Source: Gammaproteobacteria bacterium | GTDB taxonomy: Bacteria; Pseudomonadota; Gammaproteobacteria; Arenicellales; Poriferihabitantaceae | Length of the DNA stretch: 64,000 nt | NCBI GenBank assembly: GCA_024644945.1 | Contig: JAHEGU010000008.1 | Span: forward strand, 4,868 to 68,867 | Direction of reading: 5' to 3' | Part shown: piece by piece, positions 1-58,339 of the stretch | Position numbering within the stretch: position 1 is the first letter of the stretch | Layout: every line of letters starts with the position of its first letter | Translations under genes and position numbers: made by a program | Notes under the pieces: generated by a model | What the model was told of the DNA's origin: nothing | Database searches by the model: none | Seen by the model: only the letters and a program-made list of their open reading frames with translations

Positions 1-2391
1 GGCCTGTGTAATGCGCTGCCGGAACTTGTGCACGACGCTGAGCGTGGCGGCGCGTTCGAAATCAGAGAAGTGTTAAATGATGAGCCCGGCATGTCACCTA
101 TGCAGATATGGTGTAACGAATCTCAGGAGCGCTATGTGCTGGCTGTTGAGCCAGACAGGTTCGCTGAATTTGAAGCCATTTGTGCCCGTGAGAGATGCCT
201 CTTTGCCCGGGTTGGCGAAGCCACAAAAGAACAACATCTGGTTTTGACTGACCGTCACTTCGAGGGAAAGTCTGCCCATACATCGATCCCTATTGATCTG
301 TCCATGGCGCTCTTGTTTGGGCTGCCGCCAAAGATGAAACGAGACGTGGAGAGCGCGGTCCCTTATCTGGCGCCGCTCGAAAATTCAAAGCGGTCTATTA
401 GTGAATTATTGTCACTGGTTTTATCATTTCCCGCGGTAGCGGATAAGACTTTTCTAGTCACTATTGGAGATCGCAGCGTTACCGGCATGATTGCACGGGA
501 TCAGATGGTTGGACCCTGGCAGGTGCCAGTATCTGACGTCGCGGTAACCTGTTCGGATTATTACGGCTACACGGGCGAGGCCATGGCCGTTGGTGAACGG
601 ACACCCGTGGCAGTTATCAATGCAGAGGCGAGTGGGCGAATGGCCATTGGAGAGGCTTTGACCAATCTTGCTTCGGCAATGATTGGAGAGACCTCATCTA
701 TTCGCCTGTCTGCCAACTGGATGGTCGCTGCCGGAGAACCGGGACATGATGCCGAACTGTATCGCACTGTCCGTGCAGTGGCGTTGGACCTTTGTCCCCA
801 ACTGGCGCTGGCGATTCCGGTTGGCAAGGATTCGATGTCGATGGCAACGCGTTGGCAGGATAATGATGGGCAGGAGCATAAGGTAGTGGCGCCGTTATCC
901 CTGGTAGTCACTGCGTTTTCTCCGGTCGTCGATATACGTGGGACCTGTACCCCATTGATCAGGCTTGATAAGGGACCAACTGAATTATGGTTTTTCGATC
1001 TTGGTTGTGGCAATAATCGACTTGGTGGTTCAGTGCTTGCGCAGGTGCTGGGACAGCTCGGCGATCAGGCACCTGATGTCAATGCAACAGTGCTGAAGCG
1101 TTTTATGAGTTTTATGTGCACTGTTCATCAACAGCAACTAGCCTGCGCTTATCATGATCGTTCCGACGGTGGACTCGCGGCGACCCTGATGGAAATGTGT
1201 TTTACTGCACGCTGCGGAATTGAGATAGATATTGCCGCTCTTGGGCCTGACTCGTTGGCGATTTTGTTCAGCGAGGAGCTCGGCGCAGTGATTCAGGTTG
1301 GTACAAAAGACCGGGATCGTATGCAAGGCTTGGTTGACGACAATGGCTTAGGTGCAATCAGTTATCGAATTGGTCAACCTACCAATAGTCATCGTATCGC
1401 GATTAACAATGGCGCCGAGACCCTTGTGGATGTCGCCCGTGAATCCCTGCATCGAGCCTGGTCAGAGGTGACCTGGCAAATGCAGCGGATGCGTGACAAT
1501 CCTGCTTGCGCGGATCAGGAATATGATCGACTGCTCGATCTCGATGATCCGGGAATTCATCCTACTTTGACTTTTAATCCCGCTGAGGATATTGCGGCGC
1601 CGTTTGTCTCTAGCGGTCACCGACCGCGAATCGCTATTCTTCGGGAGCAAGGTGTTAACGGGCAGCTTGAGATGGCTGCGGCATTTGATCGCGCTGGTTT
1701 CACCGCAGTTGATGTCACCATGAGTGACCTGGTTGGCGGTTTGACTCTAGATGAGTTCCGCGGTTTTGCCGCCTGTGGCGGTTTTTCATTTGGTGACGTG
1801 CTTGGTGCGGGAGAGGGTTGGGCTAAGTCTATTCTGTTTAACAGCCGTTTACGAGACGCGTTTCAGGAGTTTTTTGAACGCTCTGATACTTTTGCTTTAG
1901 GCGTCTGTAATGGTTGCCAGATGATGTCGACGATCAAGGAGCTGATACCAGGTGCAGATCACTGGCCCAGATTTATAAGAAACGCTTCAGAACAGTATGA
2001 AGCGAGGTTCGTCACCGTTAGTATCGAGTCGCAGGTATCAATCTTACTGCACGAGATGCAGGGTTCTCGATTCGCTGTTTCGGTGGCACATGGGGAGGGG
2101 AGGGCGTGGTTTCCAAGTATTGATCACCTGCATGCACTAGAACGATCCGGGCAGGTTGCCATGCGATTTGTCGATAACCATCATCAGGCTACAGAAAGAT
2201 ATCCATTTAATTCCAATGGTTCCCCTCAAGGTGTAACTGGCTTTACCAATGAAGACGGACGATTTACGATCATGATGCCGCATCCTGAGCGCGTATTCAG
2301 AACTATCACGCATTCCTGGCACCCGGATGAGTGGCAAGAGAACAGTCCCTGGATGCGTTTATTTCAGAATGCTCGTGCGTGGGTGGCTTAG
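1..2391 (+). CDS. purL: phosphoribosylformylglycinamidine synthase (large single-chain PurL), C-terminal ~790 aa; 5' end outside window
   Basis: Frame-1 ORF open from base 1 to the stop at 2389-2391. AIR-synthase-like repeats are followed by a class-I glutamine amidotransferase domain with the GVCNGCQMM nucleophile and the HGEG / MPHPER motifs. Confidence 0.9.
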   Translation, partial: GLCNALPELVHDAERGGAFEIREVLNDEPGMSPMQIWCNESQERYVLAVEPDRFAEFEAICARERCLFARVGEATKEQHLVLTDRHFEGKSAHTSIPIDLSMALLFGLPPKMKRDVESAVPYLAPLENSKRSISELLSLVLSFPAVADKTFLVTIGDRSVTGMIARDQMVGPWQVPVSDVAVTCSDYYGYTGEAMAVGERTPVAVINAEASGRMAIGEALTNLASAMIGETSSIRLSANWMVAAGEPGHDAELYRTVRAVALDLCPQLALAIPVGKDSMSMATRWQDNDGQEHKVVAPLSLVVTAFSPVVDIRGTCTPLIRLDKGPTELWFFDLGCGNNRLGGSVLAQVLGQLGDQAPDVNATVLKRFMSFMCTVHQQQLACAYHDRSDGGLAATLMEMCFTARCGIEIDIAALGPDSLAILFSEELGAVIQVGTKDRDRMQGLVDDNGLGAISYRIGQPTNSHRIAINNGAETLVDVARESLHRAWSEVTWQMQRMRDNPACADQEYDRLLDLDDPGIHPTLTFNPAEDIAAPFVSSGHRPRIAILREQGVNGQLEMAAAFDRAGFTAVDVTMSDLVGGLTLDEFRGFAACGGFSFGDVLGAGEGWAKSILFNSRLRDAFQEFFERSDTFALGVCNGCQMMSTIKELIPGADHWPRFIRNASEQYEARFVTVSIESQVSILLHEMQGSRFAVSVAHGEGRAWFPSIDHLHALERSGQVAMRFVDNHHQATERYPFNSNGSPQGVTGFTNEDGRFTIMMPHPERVFRTITHSWHPDEWQENSPWMRLFQNARAWVA

Positions 2392-4090: not shown

Positions 4091-5746
4091 CTACATATTG
4101 GCGTAGTTTGGTCCCCCTGTACCTTCTGGCGTGACCCAGGTAATGTTTTTTGTAGGATCTTTGATGTCACACGTCTTACAGTGTACACAATTTTGCGCAT
4201 TAATGTGCAGTTCGGGGCGCTCCTCTTTATTGACGTATTCGTAGACCCCGGCAGGACAAAACCGTTCTTCAGGGCCGCCATAGCGCCTGAAGTTTATCTC
4301 AACTGCACGAGACTCCTCGCCTAGACGCAGGTGCACAGGTTGATCATCCTCATGATAGGTGTTGGATAAAAAAACCGAAGAAGTTTTATCGAAGCTGAGT
4401 ATGCCGTCTGGTTTCGGGTAGTCGATTGGTTGGCACTCGGCAATAGGCTTAAGTGTTTCATGATCCGGCTTCGGGTCAGACAGAGTAAACGGCAGCTTAC
4501 CGCCTAGTATGTTTTGTTCGATGTAGTTCCAGGTGCCGCCCAGCCAGGTGCCAAATTTGTGAATCGCGGCACCAAAATTACGAGATTTGTGTAATTCGTC
4601 ATGCAGCCAGGAGTGTTTAAATCGCTGTTCGTAACCTGCCAGGTCTGCATTGTTAACGAGGTTTTCAAATACCGCCTCCGCCGCCAGCATGCCGGACTTC
4701 ATTGCAGTATGTGAACCTTTAATTTTGGAGAAGTTAAGCGTGCCGGCATCGCAACCAATCAACAGACCGCCCGGCATAACCATCTTCGGCAAAGCGTTGA
4801 GACCGCCTTTTGTTATGGCCCTTGCGCCATAAGTCAATCGCTCGCCACCTTCCAGGTACTGCTTGATTTCCGGGTGATGCTTGAAACGCTGCAGCTCATC
4901 AAACGGACTTACATGGGAGTTAGAGTATGACAGATCGGTTATCATGCCTATGGATACCAGATCATCACCAAGGTGGTACAAAAACGAACCACCGGTGGAG
5001 CCTGACTCCTTGTGCGGCCATCCGGCACCGTGCAAAACGAGTCCGGGTTTGTGCTTGGATTTATTGATCTTCCAAAGCTCTTTAATCCCAATGGCATAGT
5101 GCTGTGACTCGCAGTCCGCGTCCAGATGAAAATGGTCAATCAATTGTTTACCGAGGTGGCCACGACAGCCTTCCGCAAACAACGTGACCCGGGCATGAAG
5201 CTCCATACCCGGTTCGTAAGAATTTTTCGCTTCGCCATCTTTTCCCCGACCCATTTCCCCGGTCGCAACACCCTTGATTGTTCCATCTTCATTGAACAAA
5301 ACTTCCGATGCCGGGAATCCAGGGAAAATCTCCACACCTAGGCTTTCAGCTTGTTCCCCTAACCATCGGACCACTTCGCCAAGACTGACAATATAGTTAC
5401 CATCATTGCGCATTGGCTTCGGGTGCATCCAATGTGGCATGTGGATTGCCTTGTCGGCATTCCGAAACATCAATACTTGGTCTTCAGTTACCGCAGTGTT
5501 AAGCGGAGCACCCATTTCTTTCCAGTCGGGAAATAATTCATCCATAGCACGCGGCTCAAATACAGCGCCCGACAGAATATGCGCGCCCACTTCTGAACCT
5601 TTCTCTAGAACCACGACACTGAGCTCCTGTTCTTTTTCCTGGGCCAGTTGCATCAACCTGCATGCAGCGGAGAGTCCGGCGGGCCCAGCGCCAATAATCA
5701 CAACATCCACTTCCATGGATTCGCGTTCAATCTGGTCTGTCGACAT
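4091..5746 (-). CDS. electron-transfer flavoprotein:ubiquinone oxidoreductase (ETF-QO)
   Basis: 551 aa. N-terminal FAD fold (VVIIGAGPAGLSAA) and a C-terminal 4Fe-4S cluster region (RFCPAGVY...CVHCKTCDIKDP). Length is typical of bacterial ETF-QO. Confidence 0.9.
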   Translation of the reverse strand: MSTDQIERESMEVDVVIIGAGPAGLSAACRLMQLAQEKEQELSVVVLEKGSEVGAHILSGAVFEPRAMDELFPDWKEMGAPLNTAVTEDQVLMFRNADKAIHMPHWMHPKPMRNDGNYIVSLGEVVRWLGEQAESLGVEIFPGFPASEVLFNEDGTIKGVATGEMGRGKDGEAKNSYEPGMELHARVTLFAEGCRGHLGKQLIDHFHLDADCESQHYAIGIKELWKINKSKHKPGLVLHGAGWPHKESGSTGGSFLYHLGDDLVSIGMITDLSYSNSHVSPFDELQRFKHHPEIKQYLEGGERLTYGARAITKGGLNALPKMVMPGGLLIGCDAGTLNFSKIKGSHTAMKSGMLAAEAVFENLVNNADLAGYEQRFKHSWLHDELHKSRNFGAAIHKFGTWLGGTWNYIEQNILGGKLPFTLSDPKPDHETLKPIAECQPIDYPKPDGILSFDKTSSVFLSNTYHEDDQPVHLRLGEESRAVEINFRRYGGPEERFCPAGVYEYVNKEERPELHINAQNCVHCKTCDIKDPTKNITWVTPEGTGGPNYANM

Positions 5747-39075: not shown

Positions 39076-39196
39076 CGCGCTCCATTTTGTGTAACGGTTT
39101 GTGAGCAGGCCAATGCGTCGGTCAGCGGTGGTGATTTGATAACTATCCCTTCTCGATAAGTCATTGTTTTTCAGATATTTTTTCGTTTTTTAGTTA

Positions 39197-39589
39197 GCCC
39201 GCATAGCTCAGTTGGCTAGAGCAGCTGATTTGTAAAATTGCACCTTTTCGGGGAAACCCGGGAAGTGGAGGTGGCTAAAACGGGGAAACCTTCCCGGGTG
39301 GTTGTTAAAACGGTCCAATCCGACCGTCAATTTCACAACGTTACCCGATTGGCAATCCCGTGCTACCCCGGTTCGAAGTTGATGAGACCTTAAGGTTCTC
39401 CAATACCTTGGATTGGGGGAGTGTAGAGACTTTACACCACCCACCTGCAGCCCGAATGGTCGGGTATGGTGAAGAGAAAGTCCAGACCCCAAACCCAAAA
39501 CACGCCTTCTGGGGGCGGTAACGGGGCCGCGAAAGCGGTGGTAGGTAAGAATCAGCCGGTCGGGGGTTCGAGTCCCTCTGCGGGCTCCA
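39197..39589 (+). tRNA. thrU: tRNA-Thr(UGU) interrupted by a 316-nt intron between positions 36 and 37
   Basis: Exon 1 (39197-39233) and exon 2 (39550-39589) join into a perfect 77-nt cloverleaf: 7-bp acceptor GCCCGCA/TGCGGGC, D stem GCTC/GAGC, anticodon stem GCTGA/TCAGC, loop TTTGTAA, T arm GGGGG-TTCGAGT-CCCTC, and an encoded CCA. The position matches thrU of the E. coli thrU-tyrU-glyT-thrT-tufB operon. Confidence 0.85.
39234..39549 (+). ncRNA. group I intron (IC3-like), ORF-less
   Basis: The 5' exon ends in U and the intron ends in G. GCA at 39240-39242 can form P1 with UGU, including the G.U wobble. The core strings GGCAATCCCGTGCTA (39351-39365) and GTGTAGAGACTTTACACCACCCACCT...GGGTATGG (39421-39469) resemble the Azoarcus and cyanobacterial tRNA intron cores. 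GAAA-tetraloop hairpins lie at 39249-39260 and 39527-39538. Confidence 0.8.
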
Positions 39590-39714
39590 CTAGAAGCGGA
39601 TATCGCTTGGCTGAAACGGATGGGTGTATCGTGAAACGCAGCACGAAGTGGCTGTCGGGAAACCGGCCTGAATGGTCCTGCAGCGACTGGTCGCAAATGG
39701 ATCGAAAAGTTGTT

Positions 39715-39799
39715 GGAGGGGTTCCCGAGCGGTCAAAGGGGGCAGACTGTAAATCTGCTGGCTCAGCCTTCGGAGGTTCGAATCCTCCCCCCTCCACCA
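39715..39799 (+). tRNA. tyrU: tRNA-Tyr(GUA), long variable arm, CCA encoded
   Basis: GGAGGGG...CCCCTCC acceptor stem, anticodon arm GCAGA-CTGTAAA-TCTGC, T loop TTCGAAT. Nearly collinear with E. coli tRNA-Tyr. Confidence 0.95.
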
Positions 39800-39852: not shown

Positions 39853-39927
39853 GCGGGTGTAGTTCAACGGCTAGAACCTCAGCCTTCCAAGCTGATGATG
39901 TGGGTTCGATTCCCATCACCCGCTCCA
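39853..39927 (+). tRNA. glyT: tRNA-Gly(UCC)
   Basis: GCGGGTG/CACCCGC acceptor stem, anticodon arm TCAGC-CTTCCAA-GCTGA, T loop TTCGATT, CCA encoded. Confidence 0.95.
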
Positions 39928-39958: not shown

Positions 39959-40034
<76 letters not shown>

Positions 40035-40155: not shown

Positions 40156-41346
40156 ATGTCGAAAGAAAAATTTGAGAGAACGAAGCCGCACGTAAACGTT
40201 GGCACGATAGGTCACGTAGACCATGGTAAGACGACTTTAACGGCGGCGATGACCAAGGTGCTGTCGACGAAGTATGGTGGATCGGCGAAAGATTTTGCTG
40301 ACATTGACAATGCGCCTGAAGAGCGAGAGCGCGGGATCACGATTGCGACGGCGCACGTAGAGTATGAGACGGAAGGTCGTCATTACGCGCACGTAGACTG
40401 CCCGGGCCACGCGGACTATGTGAAGAACATGATCACCGGAGCGGCGCAGATGGATGGTGCGATCCTGGTATGTTCAGCGGCGGACGGTCCGATGCCGCAG
40501 ACCCGTGAGCACATACTGCTGGCGCGTCAGGTTGGAGTGCCGTACATCGTGGTGTTTATGAACAAGGCGGACATGGTCGACGACGAAGAGCTGTTGGAAC
40601 TGGTAGAGATGGAAATACGGGAGCTTCTGGACAGTTATGAATTTCCGGGTGACGACACGCCGATTATTATTGGCTCAGCGCTGAAGGCACTGGAAGGCGA
40701 CACGTCTGATATCGGGGAGGGGTCGATTATGAAGCTGGCTGAGGCGTTAGATAGTTACATTCCGGAGCCTGAGCGTGCGGTAGATGGAGATTTTCTGATG
40801 CCGGTAGAGGATGTGTTCTCGATATCTGGACGCGGTACGGTGGTCACGGGACGTATAGAGCGAGGCGTGATCAAGGTAGGCGAGGAGATCGAGATTGTAG
40901 GGGTCAATGATACGACTAAGACCACGTGCACGGGGGTAGAGATGTTCCGCAAGCTTCTGGACGAAGGACAGGCGGGAGATAACGTAGGTATTCTGCTTCG
41001 AGGCACCAAGCGAGAGGAAGTGGAGCGCGGTCAGGTACTGGCGAAGCCGGGATCGATCACGCCGCACACTAAGTTTGAGGCAGAGGTATATATTTTGTCG
41101 AAGGAAGAGGGTGGACGCCACACGCCATTTTTCAATGGATATCGCCCACAGTTTTACTTCCGCACGACGGATGTGACGGGAGCCTGTGAGCTGCCTGGAG
41201 ATATTGAGATGGTGATGCCTGGAGACAATGTGAAGATGACGGCGGAGTTGATTGCGCCGATAGCGATGGAAGAAGGTCTACGCTTTGCGATACGCGAGGG
41301 CGGTCGCACTGTGGGTGCGGGCGTGGTGGCTAAGATTATCGCTTAA
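40156..41346 (+). CDS. tufB: elongation factor Tu (copy 1)
   Basis: 396 aa. [17 protein letters not shown] and NKAD motifs. Follows the four-tRNA cluster. Confidence 0.97.
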
Positions 41347-57148: not shown

Positions 57149-58339
57149 ATGTCGAAAGAAAAATTTGAGAGAACGAAGCCGCACGTAAACGTTGGCACGA
57201 TAGGTCACGTAGACCATGGTAAGACGACTTTAACGGCGGCGATGACCAAGGTGCTGTCGACGAAGTATGGTGGATCGGCGAAAGATTTTGCTGACATTGA
57301 CAATGCGCCTGAAGAGCGAGAGCGCGGGATCACGATTGCGACGGCGCACGTAGAGTATGAGACGGAAGGTCGTCATTACGCGCACGTAGACTGCCCGGGC
57401 CACGCGGACTATGTGAAGAACATGATCACCGGAGCGGCGCAGATGGATGGTGCGATCCTGGTATGTTCAGCGGCGGACGGTCCGATGCCGCAGACCCGTG
57501 AGCACATACTGCTGGCGCGTCAGGTTGGAGTGCCGTACATCGTGGTGTTTATGAACAAGGCGGACATGGTCGACGACGAAGAGCTGTTGGAACTGGTAGA
57601 GATGGAAATACGGGAGCTTCTGGACAGTTATGAATTTCCGGGTGACGACACGCCGATTATTATTGGCTCAGCGCTGAAGGCACTGGAAGGCGACACGTCT
57701 GATATCGGGGAGGGGTCGATTATGAAGCTGGCTGAGGCGTTAGATAGTTACATTCCGGAGCCTGAGCGTGCGGTAGATGGAGATTTTCTGATGCCGGTAG
57801 AGGATGTGTTCTCGATATCTGGACGCGGTACGGTGGTCACGGGACGTATAGAGCGAGGCGTGATCAAGGTAGGCGAGGAGATCGAGATTGTAGGGGTCAA
57901 TGATACGACTAAGACCACGTGCACGGGGGTAGAGATGTTCCGCAAGCTTCTGGACGAAGGACAGGCGGGAGATAACGTAGGTATTCTGCTTCGAGGCACC
58001 AAGCGAGAGGAAGTGGAGCGCGGTCAGGTACTGGCGAAGCCGGGATCGATCACGCCGCACACTAAGTTTGAGGCAGAGGTATATATTTTGTCGAAGGAAG
58101 AGGGTGGACGCCACACGCCATTTTTCAATGGATATCGCCCACAGTTTTACTTCCGCACGACGGATGTGACGGGAGCCTGTGAGCTGCCTGGAGATATTGA
58201 GATGGTGATGCCTGGAGACAATGTGAAGATGACGGCGGAGTTGATTGCGCCGATAGCGATGGAAGAAGGTCTACGCTTTGCGATACGCGAGGGCGGTCGC
58301 ACTGTGGGTGCGGGCGTGGTGGCTAAGATTATCGCTTAA
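57149..58339 (+). CDS. tufA: elongation factor Tu (copy 2)
   Basis: 396 aa, identical to copy 1. Classical position after fusA. Confidence 0.97.

Follow-up and report, generated by a model that had tools for sequence, protein, structure and literature searches.

The 64,000-nucleotide (nt) stretch of gammaproteobacterial DNA analysed here (the window) contains a tRNA-Thr(UGU) gene, thrU, that is interrupted by an insert of 316 nt between U36 and A37. To judge by its sequence and by that of its relatives, the insert is a group I intron of the IC3-like type found in bacterial tRNAs, and it is very probably functional and able to splice itself. It is homologous to known bacterial tRNA introns, it has their structure from paired region P1 to P9, and it is conserved and covaries among its orthologues. 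The gene is laid out as follows.

39197 to 39233, + strand: exon 1 of tRNA-Thr(UGU), 37 nt, called by ARAGORN on the joined exons and with option -i; acceptor 5' strand, D arm, anticodon stem 5' strand, U32, U33 and the anticodon U34 G35 U36.
39234 to 39549, + strand: group I intron, 316 nt, located after U36, ending in G and without an open reading frame (ORF) of its own.
39549 to 39549, + strand: omega G, the final nucleotide of the intron, invariant in 26 sequences, at which the covariance-model alignment stops.
39550 to 39589, + strand: exon 2 of tRNA-Thr(UGU), 40 nt with the CCA encoded, called by ARAGORN; A37, A38, anticodon stem 3' strand, variable loop, T arm, acceptor 3' strand, discriminator U and CCA.

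Joining of the two exons produced a 77-nt molecule that ARAGORN called as tRNA-Thr(tgt) with all four stems, and a search of positions 39100-39700 with intron detection turned on returned tRNA-Thr(tgt) i(38,316). The 7-nt anticodon loop was regained only when this pair of splice sites, a U and a G, was used. The exons are almost unchanged in our alignment of 26 distinct pre-tRNAs (that of the window and 25 others, with introns of 242-368 nt). A preliminary description of the region, made from the letters alone, had given exon sequences and coordinates that match ours exactly; it had proposed that the joined exons form an intact tRNA-Thr(UGU), which the 77-nt call bears out, and had advised the ARAGORN search with intron detection that recovered the tRNA with its 316-nt intron. 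The splice-site rules that it invoked also hold, since U36 precedes the 5' site, GCA at 39240-39242 pairs with UGU through a U.G wobble, and G39549 is the last nucleotide of the intron.

Neither ARAGORN in its default mode nor the Rfam tRNA model (RF00005) called tRNA-Thr(UGU); the calls in the window were those of Tyr, Gly, Thr(GGU) and Trp only, so the prediction that default annotation overlooks this gene was correct. The tRNAscan-SE 2.0 paper states that this tool was not designed for group I introns, which cause fMet and Ile2 genes to be missed. No Pfam family was found in the ORFs overlapping 39234-39549, and no homing endonuclease ORF (LAGLIDADG, GIY-YIG, HNH or His-Cys box) lies inside the 316-nt intron, as had been stated before.

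Membership in the group I family was tested with covariance models. The Rfam model RF00028 (Intron_gpI) scored the locus at 20.6 bits (E 0.006 in 601 nt) when its gathering score is 50, and the Rfam scan at gathering thresholds reported no intron here. The alignment covers the whole model, P1-P9, and P3, P4-P6, P7, P8 and the joining segment J8/7 are placed correctly. The preliminary description had looked to this model for a score at the gathering threshold, which was not reached, and for a consistent P3-P7 core, which could be folded within a full-length alignment. In the control searches, RF00028 gave 61-64 bits for the Bartonella tRNA-Arg(CCU) introns, 54.5 bits for the Polynucleobacter intron, 50.9 bits for the Carnimonas tRNA-Leu intron and 33.2 bits for the Burkholderia tRNA-Leu(UAA) intron, while two orthologues of the window intron (L122 and L096, presented below) scored 44.2 and 25.0 bits, respectively. 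Because accepted introns and orthologues thus also score between 25 and 64 bits, the weak score was not counted against membership. Matches to tmRNA, mascRNA, Yfr1 and CRISPR-DR, obtained with Rfam at an E-value threshold, were rejected as spurious; they reflect the T arm or short strings only.

In a preprint by Williams, the Rfam model that he used is said to have no bacterial seed sequences, and his working level was 18-20 bits (K.P. Williams, bioRxiv 10.1101/2020.01.27.920355). Since RF00028 scores low even for known introns and Williams's Rfam model had no bacterial seeds, we built a covariance model of our own, R1, from 13 seeds of the published Williams alignment of bacterial tRNA introns (hosts Leu, Arg, fMet, Met, Ile2, Lys, Ser and two other Thr types, none of them from the lineage of the window). 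R1 produced a single match in the 64-kb window, at 39229-39549 on the + strand, with 98.3 bits and an E-value of about 1e-27 over model positions 1-228, and this match ends precisely on the terminal G at 39549. All orthologues scored from 60 to 118 bits, and the negative control loci were unmatched. This agrees with the type and site first proposed, those of an IC3-like bacterial tRNA intron of group I that follows nt 36 of tRNA-Thr(UGU). The elements of the intron are as follows.

39231 to 39242, + strand: P1, UGUA (39231-39234) with UGCA (39239-39242), with the U36.G wobble at the 5' splice site.
39237 to 39242, + strand: internal guide sequence AUUGCA, which pairs with the anticodon UGU.
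39244 to 39265, + strand: P2 hairpin of 9 base pairs, with the GAAA tetraloop of loop L2 at 39253-39256; -12.2 kcal/mol.
39270 to 39274, + strand: P3 5' strand GGUGG, paired with CCACC at 39437-39441.
39280 to 39285, + strand: P4 5' strand ACGGGG, paired with UCCCGU at 39356-39361; aligned to P4 by RF00028 and R1.
39289 to 39352, + strand: P5 and its long extension (P5a/P5b); -21.7 kcal/mol, z = -2.6.
39362 to 39422, + strand: P6 (GCU/AGU) and the extended P6a arm; -24.2 kcal/mol, z = -3.5.
39426 to 39431, + strand: P7 5' strand G[A]GACU with a bulged A, paired with AGUCC at 39479-39483; aligned to P7 of RF00028.
39437 to 39441, + strand: P3 3' strand CCACC, paired with GGUGG.
39442 to 39471, + strand: P8 hairpin with a CACC...GGUG base; -12.9 kcal/mol.
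39472 to 39478, + strand: J8/7 AAGAGAA, an invariant single-stranded part of the core; aligned by RF00028 and R1.
39479 to 39483, + strand: P7 3' strand AGUCC, paired with G[A]GACU.
39486 to 39546, + strand: P9 domain, made up of P9 (ACC/GGU), P9a and P9b (GCCGC-GAAA-GCGGU), with loop L9 at 39531-39534.

The core helices P3-P8 are in the canonical order, with P3 and P7 crossing as a pseudoknot, and P3, P4, P6, P7 and P8 are 100% paired in the 26 sequences. In P1, the U.G, U-A and G-C pairs were each found in 26/26. The six pairs of P4 and the five pairs of P7 are unchanged in all sequences; the G-C pair of P7 beside the bulged A is what we take, from Tetrahymena and Azoarcus, to be the guanosine-binding site. 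The CC/GG base of P5 is invariant while its arm is unalignable between orthologues, both its length and its sequence being variable, and the base of P6 is likewise invariant, with adjoining strands that differ between orthologues yet stay complementary when read from the alignment. The middle pair of P3 is U-A in 18, C-G in 5 and U.G in 3, and the second pair of P8 is A-U in 21, G.U in 3 and G-C in 2. When the arms were folded alone, P2, P5, P6 and P8 gave the expected hairpins with z from -2.0 to -3.5, and the P9 domain also folded, but no better than shuffles. The AUU of the guide sequence could pair with the AAU that opens exon 2, forming P10. Candidate parts of an Azoarcus-type tertiary clamp are the GAAA tetraloops of L2 (26/26) and L9 (25/26, with GCAA in the remaining one), the receptor-like internal loop CCUGCAG...GUAUGG of P8 and the P5 sequence CCUUCC...GAUUGG. 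Both GAAA loops of the window, at 39253-39256 and 39531-39534, fall within the ranges given in the preliminary description, and the strings that it quoted are where it placed them, GGCAAUCCCGUGCUA at 39351-39365 and GUGUAGAGACUUU... starting at 39421.

Comparison of the 26 pre-tRNAs showed 168 invariant columns, including U-1, its pairing G, P4, P6 (at its base), P7, J8/7 and the omega G, when P5, P6, distal P8 and P9a were unalignable in length and sequence. For the 68 named pairs, 98.0% of the cells were standard-paired, compared with 93.8% in shuffles and 37-46% when the partners were slid. Sixteen pairs were changed on both sides, for a shuffle mean of 9.1, and 0/500 shuffles reached 16. 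These pairs are located in P2 (7 of its 9), P3 (1, U-A to C-G), P8 (1, A-U to G-C), P9 (1, C-G to U-A), P9b (3) and the tRNA stems (3, one in the anticodon stem and two in the T stem). The copy of the window has no private change at columns that are otherwise invariant. An invariant core combined with compensatory changes therefore argues for a constrained, folded RNA and not for a decaying insert.

The distribution of the intron was determined by several scans. A scan of 185,579 species-representative genomes with the core pattern common to the window and to Azoarcus found at least 120 loci across many phyla. Among the matches listed, the hosts returned by the ARAGORN intron search were mostly tRNA-Leu(UAA), tRNAs with a CAU anticodon and tRNA-Arg(CCU), with many others; ARAGORN with its long-intron search gives unreliable hosts for odd anticodons, and host types other than that of the window were left as called. 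Two of the matches listed have an intron after U36 of tRNA-Thr(UGU): L096, a Gammaproteobacteria metagenome-assembled genome (MAG), and L122, a Ca. Spongiihabitans MAG (Arenicellales). Downstream of the split gene, both have Tyr, Gly and Thr(GGU), to which L122 adds tufB and tRNA-Trp. A metagenome scan with the lineage-specific P3-J3/4-P4 string returned 31 contigs, 27 of which have the split gene in full and, with few exceptions, in the same cluster. In all, the same intron was found at the same site in well over 30 other public contigs, of which 25 are distinct from the window in our alignment; since it is present in many public assemblies, the intron is not unique to its source genome.

We also sampled the contigs of eight homologues of the upstream CoaX, chosen by protein similarity alone. 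Seven of them (53, 46, 44, 41, 40, 39 and 36% identity; eight loci) showed the order ispG-birA-coaX-SPOR-tRNAs-tufB, and in 8/8 of these syntenic loci thrU is split at the same site by an intron of the same family, 272-344 nt long. Around the eighth and more distant homologue (35%), the genes are arranged differently and tRNA genes are lacking; no intron-less point of the lineage was found among the CoaX homologues sampled. The orthologous introns, at 242-368 nt, are too short to hold an endonuclease gene. Its presence in all the sampled relatives that keep this gene order, together with the lack of an endonuclease, therefore points to an old, vertically kept resident and not a recent mobile insertion, and the intron looks, on sequence evidence, to be fixed across a deep divergence within an uncultured, marine-type gammaproteobacterial lineage.

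The nearest homologue of the window CoaX was 93% identical (Logan contigs) and the next ones 54% or less, while the window EF-Tu is 91% identical to that of a Ca. Spongiihabitans (Arenicellales) MAG; an exact-protein look-up of this EF-Tu returned nothing. The look-up of the upstream SPOR protein returned two Logan contigs ending before the tRNA (L001/L002, from SRR12825418/19, short-read and seemingly of the same organism); they stop about 100 nt before the tRNA gene, which means that short-read assemblies often lack this region. In two related genomes (L279:7065-8033 and L280:7047-8192), mobile-element genes separate the SPOR gene from the split thrU; the inserts differ, one being an rve-type integrase gene and the other an IS605 OrfB/TnpB-like gene, and a pair of GIY-YIG and DUF6884 genes is located upstream of ispG. 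Two further loci, L149:189-506 (-) and L150:3175-3492 (+), were called Tyr(gta) by ARAGORN when their sequence is that of tRNA-Thr(UGU) split after U36, and several odd host calls in the scans of genomes and viral contigs (His atg, Cys aca, Tyr ata, Phe aaa) probably have the same kind of error behind them.

Identities with known introns were computed in model-aligned columns over about 100 introns. The window intron is 78% identical to those of L122 and L096 and at most 69% identical to any other; it is 62% identical to that of L032, located at the same site of tRNA-Thr(GGU), which is no closer to it than are the tRNA-Leu and tRNA-Arg introns. These identities (78% versus 69% or less versus 62%) therefore indicate a separate lineage and not one that derives closely from the Thr(GGU) type already known.

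The intron of the Azoarcus sp. BH72 tRNA-Ile(CAU) is a group I intron of subgroup IC3, reportedly described by Reinhold-Hurek and Shub in 1992. The window intron resembles it by its site after nt 36, its P1-P9 plan, the GAAA of L2 and L9 and the lack of an endonuclease gene, and the two differ by the host tRNA and anticodon and by P4, which is UCGGCG/CGCCGA in Azoarcus and ACGGGG/UCCCGU in the window. Their pairwise alignment showed about 69% identity. With its long P5, P6 and P9 arms, the window intron reaches 316 nt compared with about 205 nt for Azoarcus. The likeness between the two cores, which the preliminary description had pointed out, was found again in the near-identical strings GUGUAGAGACU..AC..CACCCACCU and GGUGAAG....AGUCCAG, shared by the window and the Azoarcus sequence of the Williams seed alignment, where it is named Aol6.Ile2.5Ug (bioRxiv 10.1101/2020.01.27.920355).

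Comparison with the Thr.5Ug introns of Williams (seed Rba53.Thr.5Ug, and L032 from an Acetobacteraceae MAG) showed the same location after nt 36 of a tRNA-Thr, the same U-1 and terminal G and a short P1 of the form NNUA-loop-UGNN, when the host of the seed and of L032 is tRNA-Thr(GGU) and that of the window has the anticodon UGU. The window thus fits the Thr.5Ug setting (nt 36/37, U-1, omega G), a fit that carries no information on descent. The Thr.3Ug introns (Mti5.Thr.3Ug and the viral L220) are group I introns of tRNA-Thr(UGU) as well, but are located after U34, the site of the tRNA-Leu(UAA) type. The cyanobacterial and plastid tRNA-Leu(UAA) intron shares an IC3-type core, the lack of an endonuclease and a long vertical persistence in one tRNA gene; it differs by its site after U34, its host lineage and its J6/7-P7 segment (GCAGAGACU in seed Sel1 versus GUAGAGACU). 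Of the parallels with this intron drawn in the preliminary description, that of the segment GGCAAUCC.G.GC.A was confirmed, the segment being common to both.

The IC3 core pattern was also seen in at least 120 IMG/VR viral contigs. One of them, L243:1276-1543 (+), has a tRNA-Thr(UGU) intron after U36 with an identical guide, AUUGCA; it differs from the window intron by its length (194 nt), its UUCGGGG-type P4, its R1 score (146 bits versus 98), its exons and its viral context, and another, L220:242-525 (-), has its intron after U34. Such introns may spread by way of phage tRNA genes. A blastn search against phage GenBank records returned exon-1 matches to phage tRNA-Thr genes only and no intron match. 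Two contigs, L138:3484-3830 and L146:1289-1635 (Ga0180438/Ga0180437), have a dense array of 25-30 tRNA genes including one split long-arm tRNA, called Ser(tga) by ARAGORN and read by eye as Leu(UAA) split after U34, whose intron has the P3-P4-P5 string of the window lineage and an R1 score of 130 bits. At L054:4335-5099 (+), ARAGORN called a tRNA-Leu(UAA) with a 678-nt intron that holds two full-length R1 cores, at 4367-4586 (42.9 bits) and 4843-5047 (78.5 bits), which may be tandem or nested introns.

The number of bacterial tRNA/intron settings was raised from four to 21 by Williams, whose seeds include Rba53.Thr.5Ug (after nt 36, GGU from its P1), Mti5.Thr.3Ug (UGU, after U34) and Pgr210.Thr.2Ug (bioRxiv 10.1101/2020.01.27.920355). 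The view that only four bacterial tRNAs host such introns, none of them a tRNA-Thr, is therefore outdated. Equally, the idea that no gammaproteobacterial tRNA carries one did not survive our genome scan, in which tRNA-Leu(UAA) group I introns were found in Carnimonas nigrificans, Halioglobus and Steroidobacteraceae. Introns of tRNA-Leu(UAA) had also been recorded in 14 Burkholderia species by tRNADB-CE (2008). The literature check suggested in the preliminary description thus had a divided outcome, with three tRNA-Thr types already in the preprint and none on the thrU/tufB cluster: no paper was found that reports a group I intron for thrU or within the tufB cluster, and for tRNA-Thr or Gammaproteobacteria only the Williams preprint was relevant. 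The thrU intron lineage itself appears to be undescribed in the literature text searched, Table 1 of the preprint lying outside that text. What appears to be new is a distinct, deeply conserved thrU lineage; the kind of intron and its insertion setting were known already. That it is an undescribed, ancient, endonuclease-free ribozyme lineage, fixed in what would be the sole tRNA-Thr(UGU) gene of an uncultured gammaproteobacterial clade (Arenicellales-like organisms and relatives), is possible though less likely than not, and we put it forward tentatively.

If the intron acts as its family does, the pre-tRNA would fold with the guide AUUGCA paired to the anticodon UGU, giving P1 with the U36.G wobble. 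Free guanosine at the G-C pair of P7 would then attack after U36, the terminal G (39549) would occupy the same P7 site while AAU/AUU (P10) holds exon 2, and ligation of the exons would release the 77-nt tRNA, whose anticodon loop would exist only after splicing.

Several observations weigh against an active, vertically inherited self-splicing intron. Its RF00028 score falls below the gathering score, although the scores of accepted members and orthologues are themselves spread over 25-64 bits; its P1 has just three exon pairs and one intron pair; and its P8 internal loop, CCUGCAG...GUAUGG, is not the canonical 11-nt motif CCUAAG...UAUGG of many orthologues. One orthologous split tRNA-Thr(UGU), at 1981-2373 (+) of L152, has a broken T stem, with the 3' strand CATTA in place of CCCTC; either decay of this copy or an error in sequencing may explain it, and some copies may be in decay. 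Vertical inheritance fits the presence of the intron in all sampled relatives, from which it was argued, and not from a comparison of trees, and self-splicing would follow from family membership and constraint.

The first alternative is that splicing needs a host protein, or that the intron was co-opted as a control point, for example one tying the supply of tRNA-Thr(UGU) to guanosine nucleotides or Mg2+. Fixation without an endonuclease in a deep lineage, in the first gene of a cluster whose last gene encodes a GTPase, would suit such a role, as would the long, lineage-specific and freely variable P5, P6 and P9 arms. We consider it improbable, because nothing conserved was found in addition to the standard group I core and because the lack of sequence conservation in these arms argues against a specific site for a ligand or a protein. 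Endonuclease-free introns are known to persist in cyanobacterial tRNA-Leu, and there no regulatory role is required.

Less probable still is a tRNA-Thr(UGU) pseudogene, disabled by an intron that does not splice, with ACA read by a second tRNA-Thr(UGU) gene elsewhere. Such a gene could lie outside the 64 kb of the genome in view, the damaged T arm of L152 gives it some credit, and the R1 score of the window is the lowest among 102 introns, three odd cases aside. However, a neutral remnant would lose its exons or its ribozyme core over such a divergence, when here the 168 invariant columns and the compensatory changes extend over 26 orthologues, the window copy is free of private substitutions at the invariant columns, and the split gene is kept in 8/8 syntenic loci chosen by protein (CoaX identity of 36-53%). 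Finally, the silence of the default tRNA scans and of the Rfam scan at gathering thresholds might suggest that there is no intron at all, only a chance resemblance, an assembly chimera or the insertion of an insertion sequence or a miniature inverted-repeat transposable element, a reading that is refuted by the pairing statistics of the alignment and by the R1 scores of the window (E about 1e-27, with exact ends) and of the orthologues, and to which the recurrence of the same structure in independent NCBI, ENA, JGI and Logan assemblies and the lack of a match to the intron part in phage records are also opposed.

The genes located 3' of the intron-bearing gene are as follows.

39715 to 39799, + strand: tRNA-Tyr(GUA).
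39853 to 39927, + strand: tRNA-Gly(UCC).
39959 to 40034, + strand: tRNA-Thr(GGU).
40156 to 41346, + strand: tufB.

These calls support the position first given to the split gene, as the leading member of a Thr(UGU)-Tyr-Gly-Thr(GGU)-tufB cluster, and the Tyr-Gly-Thr(GGU)-tufB order is kept in almost all orthologous loci. At L128:1230-1726 (-), the gene after the split tRNA-Thr(UGU) is tRNA-Leu(UAA), in place of Tyr-Gly-Thr; the intron-bearing gene is therefore not always in the tufB cluster. Gene order suggests that the cluster may be co-transcribed as an operon. A promoter scan found 3 promoter-like sites for 2.4 expected, no better than chance, and a terminator scan found one terminator-like site, inside P4/P5; both are neutral on this point.

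In eight genes of the window, among them rpoB, rpoC and fusA, 10% of the Thr codons are ACA, from which a need for the UGU isoacceptor would follow. The tufB (40156-41346) and tufA (57149-58339) genes are identical at all 1191 nt, which could result from gene conversion or from assembly collapse. Unlike rpoB, rpoC and fusA, they use ACG in 21/30 Thr codons and ACA never, and a preference for ACG in the most expressed gene, tuf, is unusual.

The general picture of group I introns and of their insertion places is unchanged by this intron. Its RF00028 score, less than half of the gathering score, points to a gap in the sensitivity of Rfam for long-armed bacterial members. The lineage offers about 30 natural sequence variants of a ribozyme that resembles that of Azoarcus and whose peripheral arms vary and, beside the cyanobacterial tRNA-Leu intron, a deeply conserved endonuclease-free example that is useful for the question of why such introns persist. 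Since default tools miss the split tRNA, genomes of this lineage look devoid of tRNA-Thr(UGU), and spurious ORFs may be called across the intron. If the split gene is the only UGU gene in the clade, decoding of ACA would depend on RNA self-splicing, and the intron might couple the supply of this tRNA to the guanine nucleotide pool, given that the gene heads the tufB cluster and that the reaction uses guanosine.

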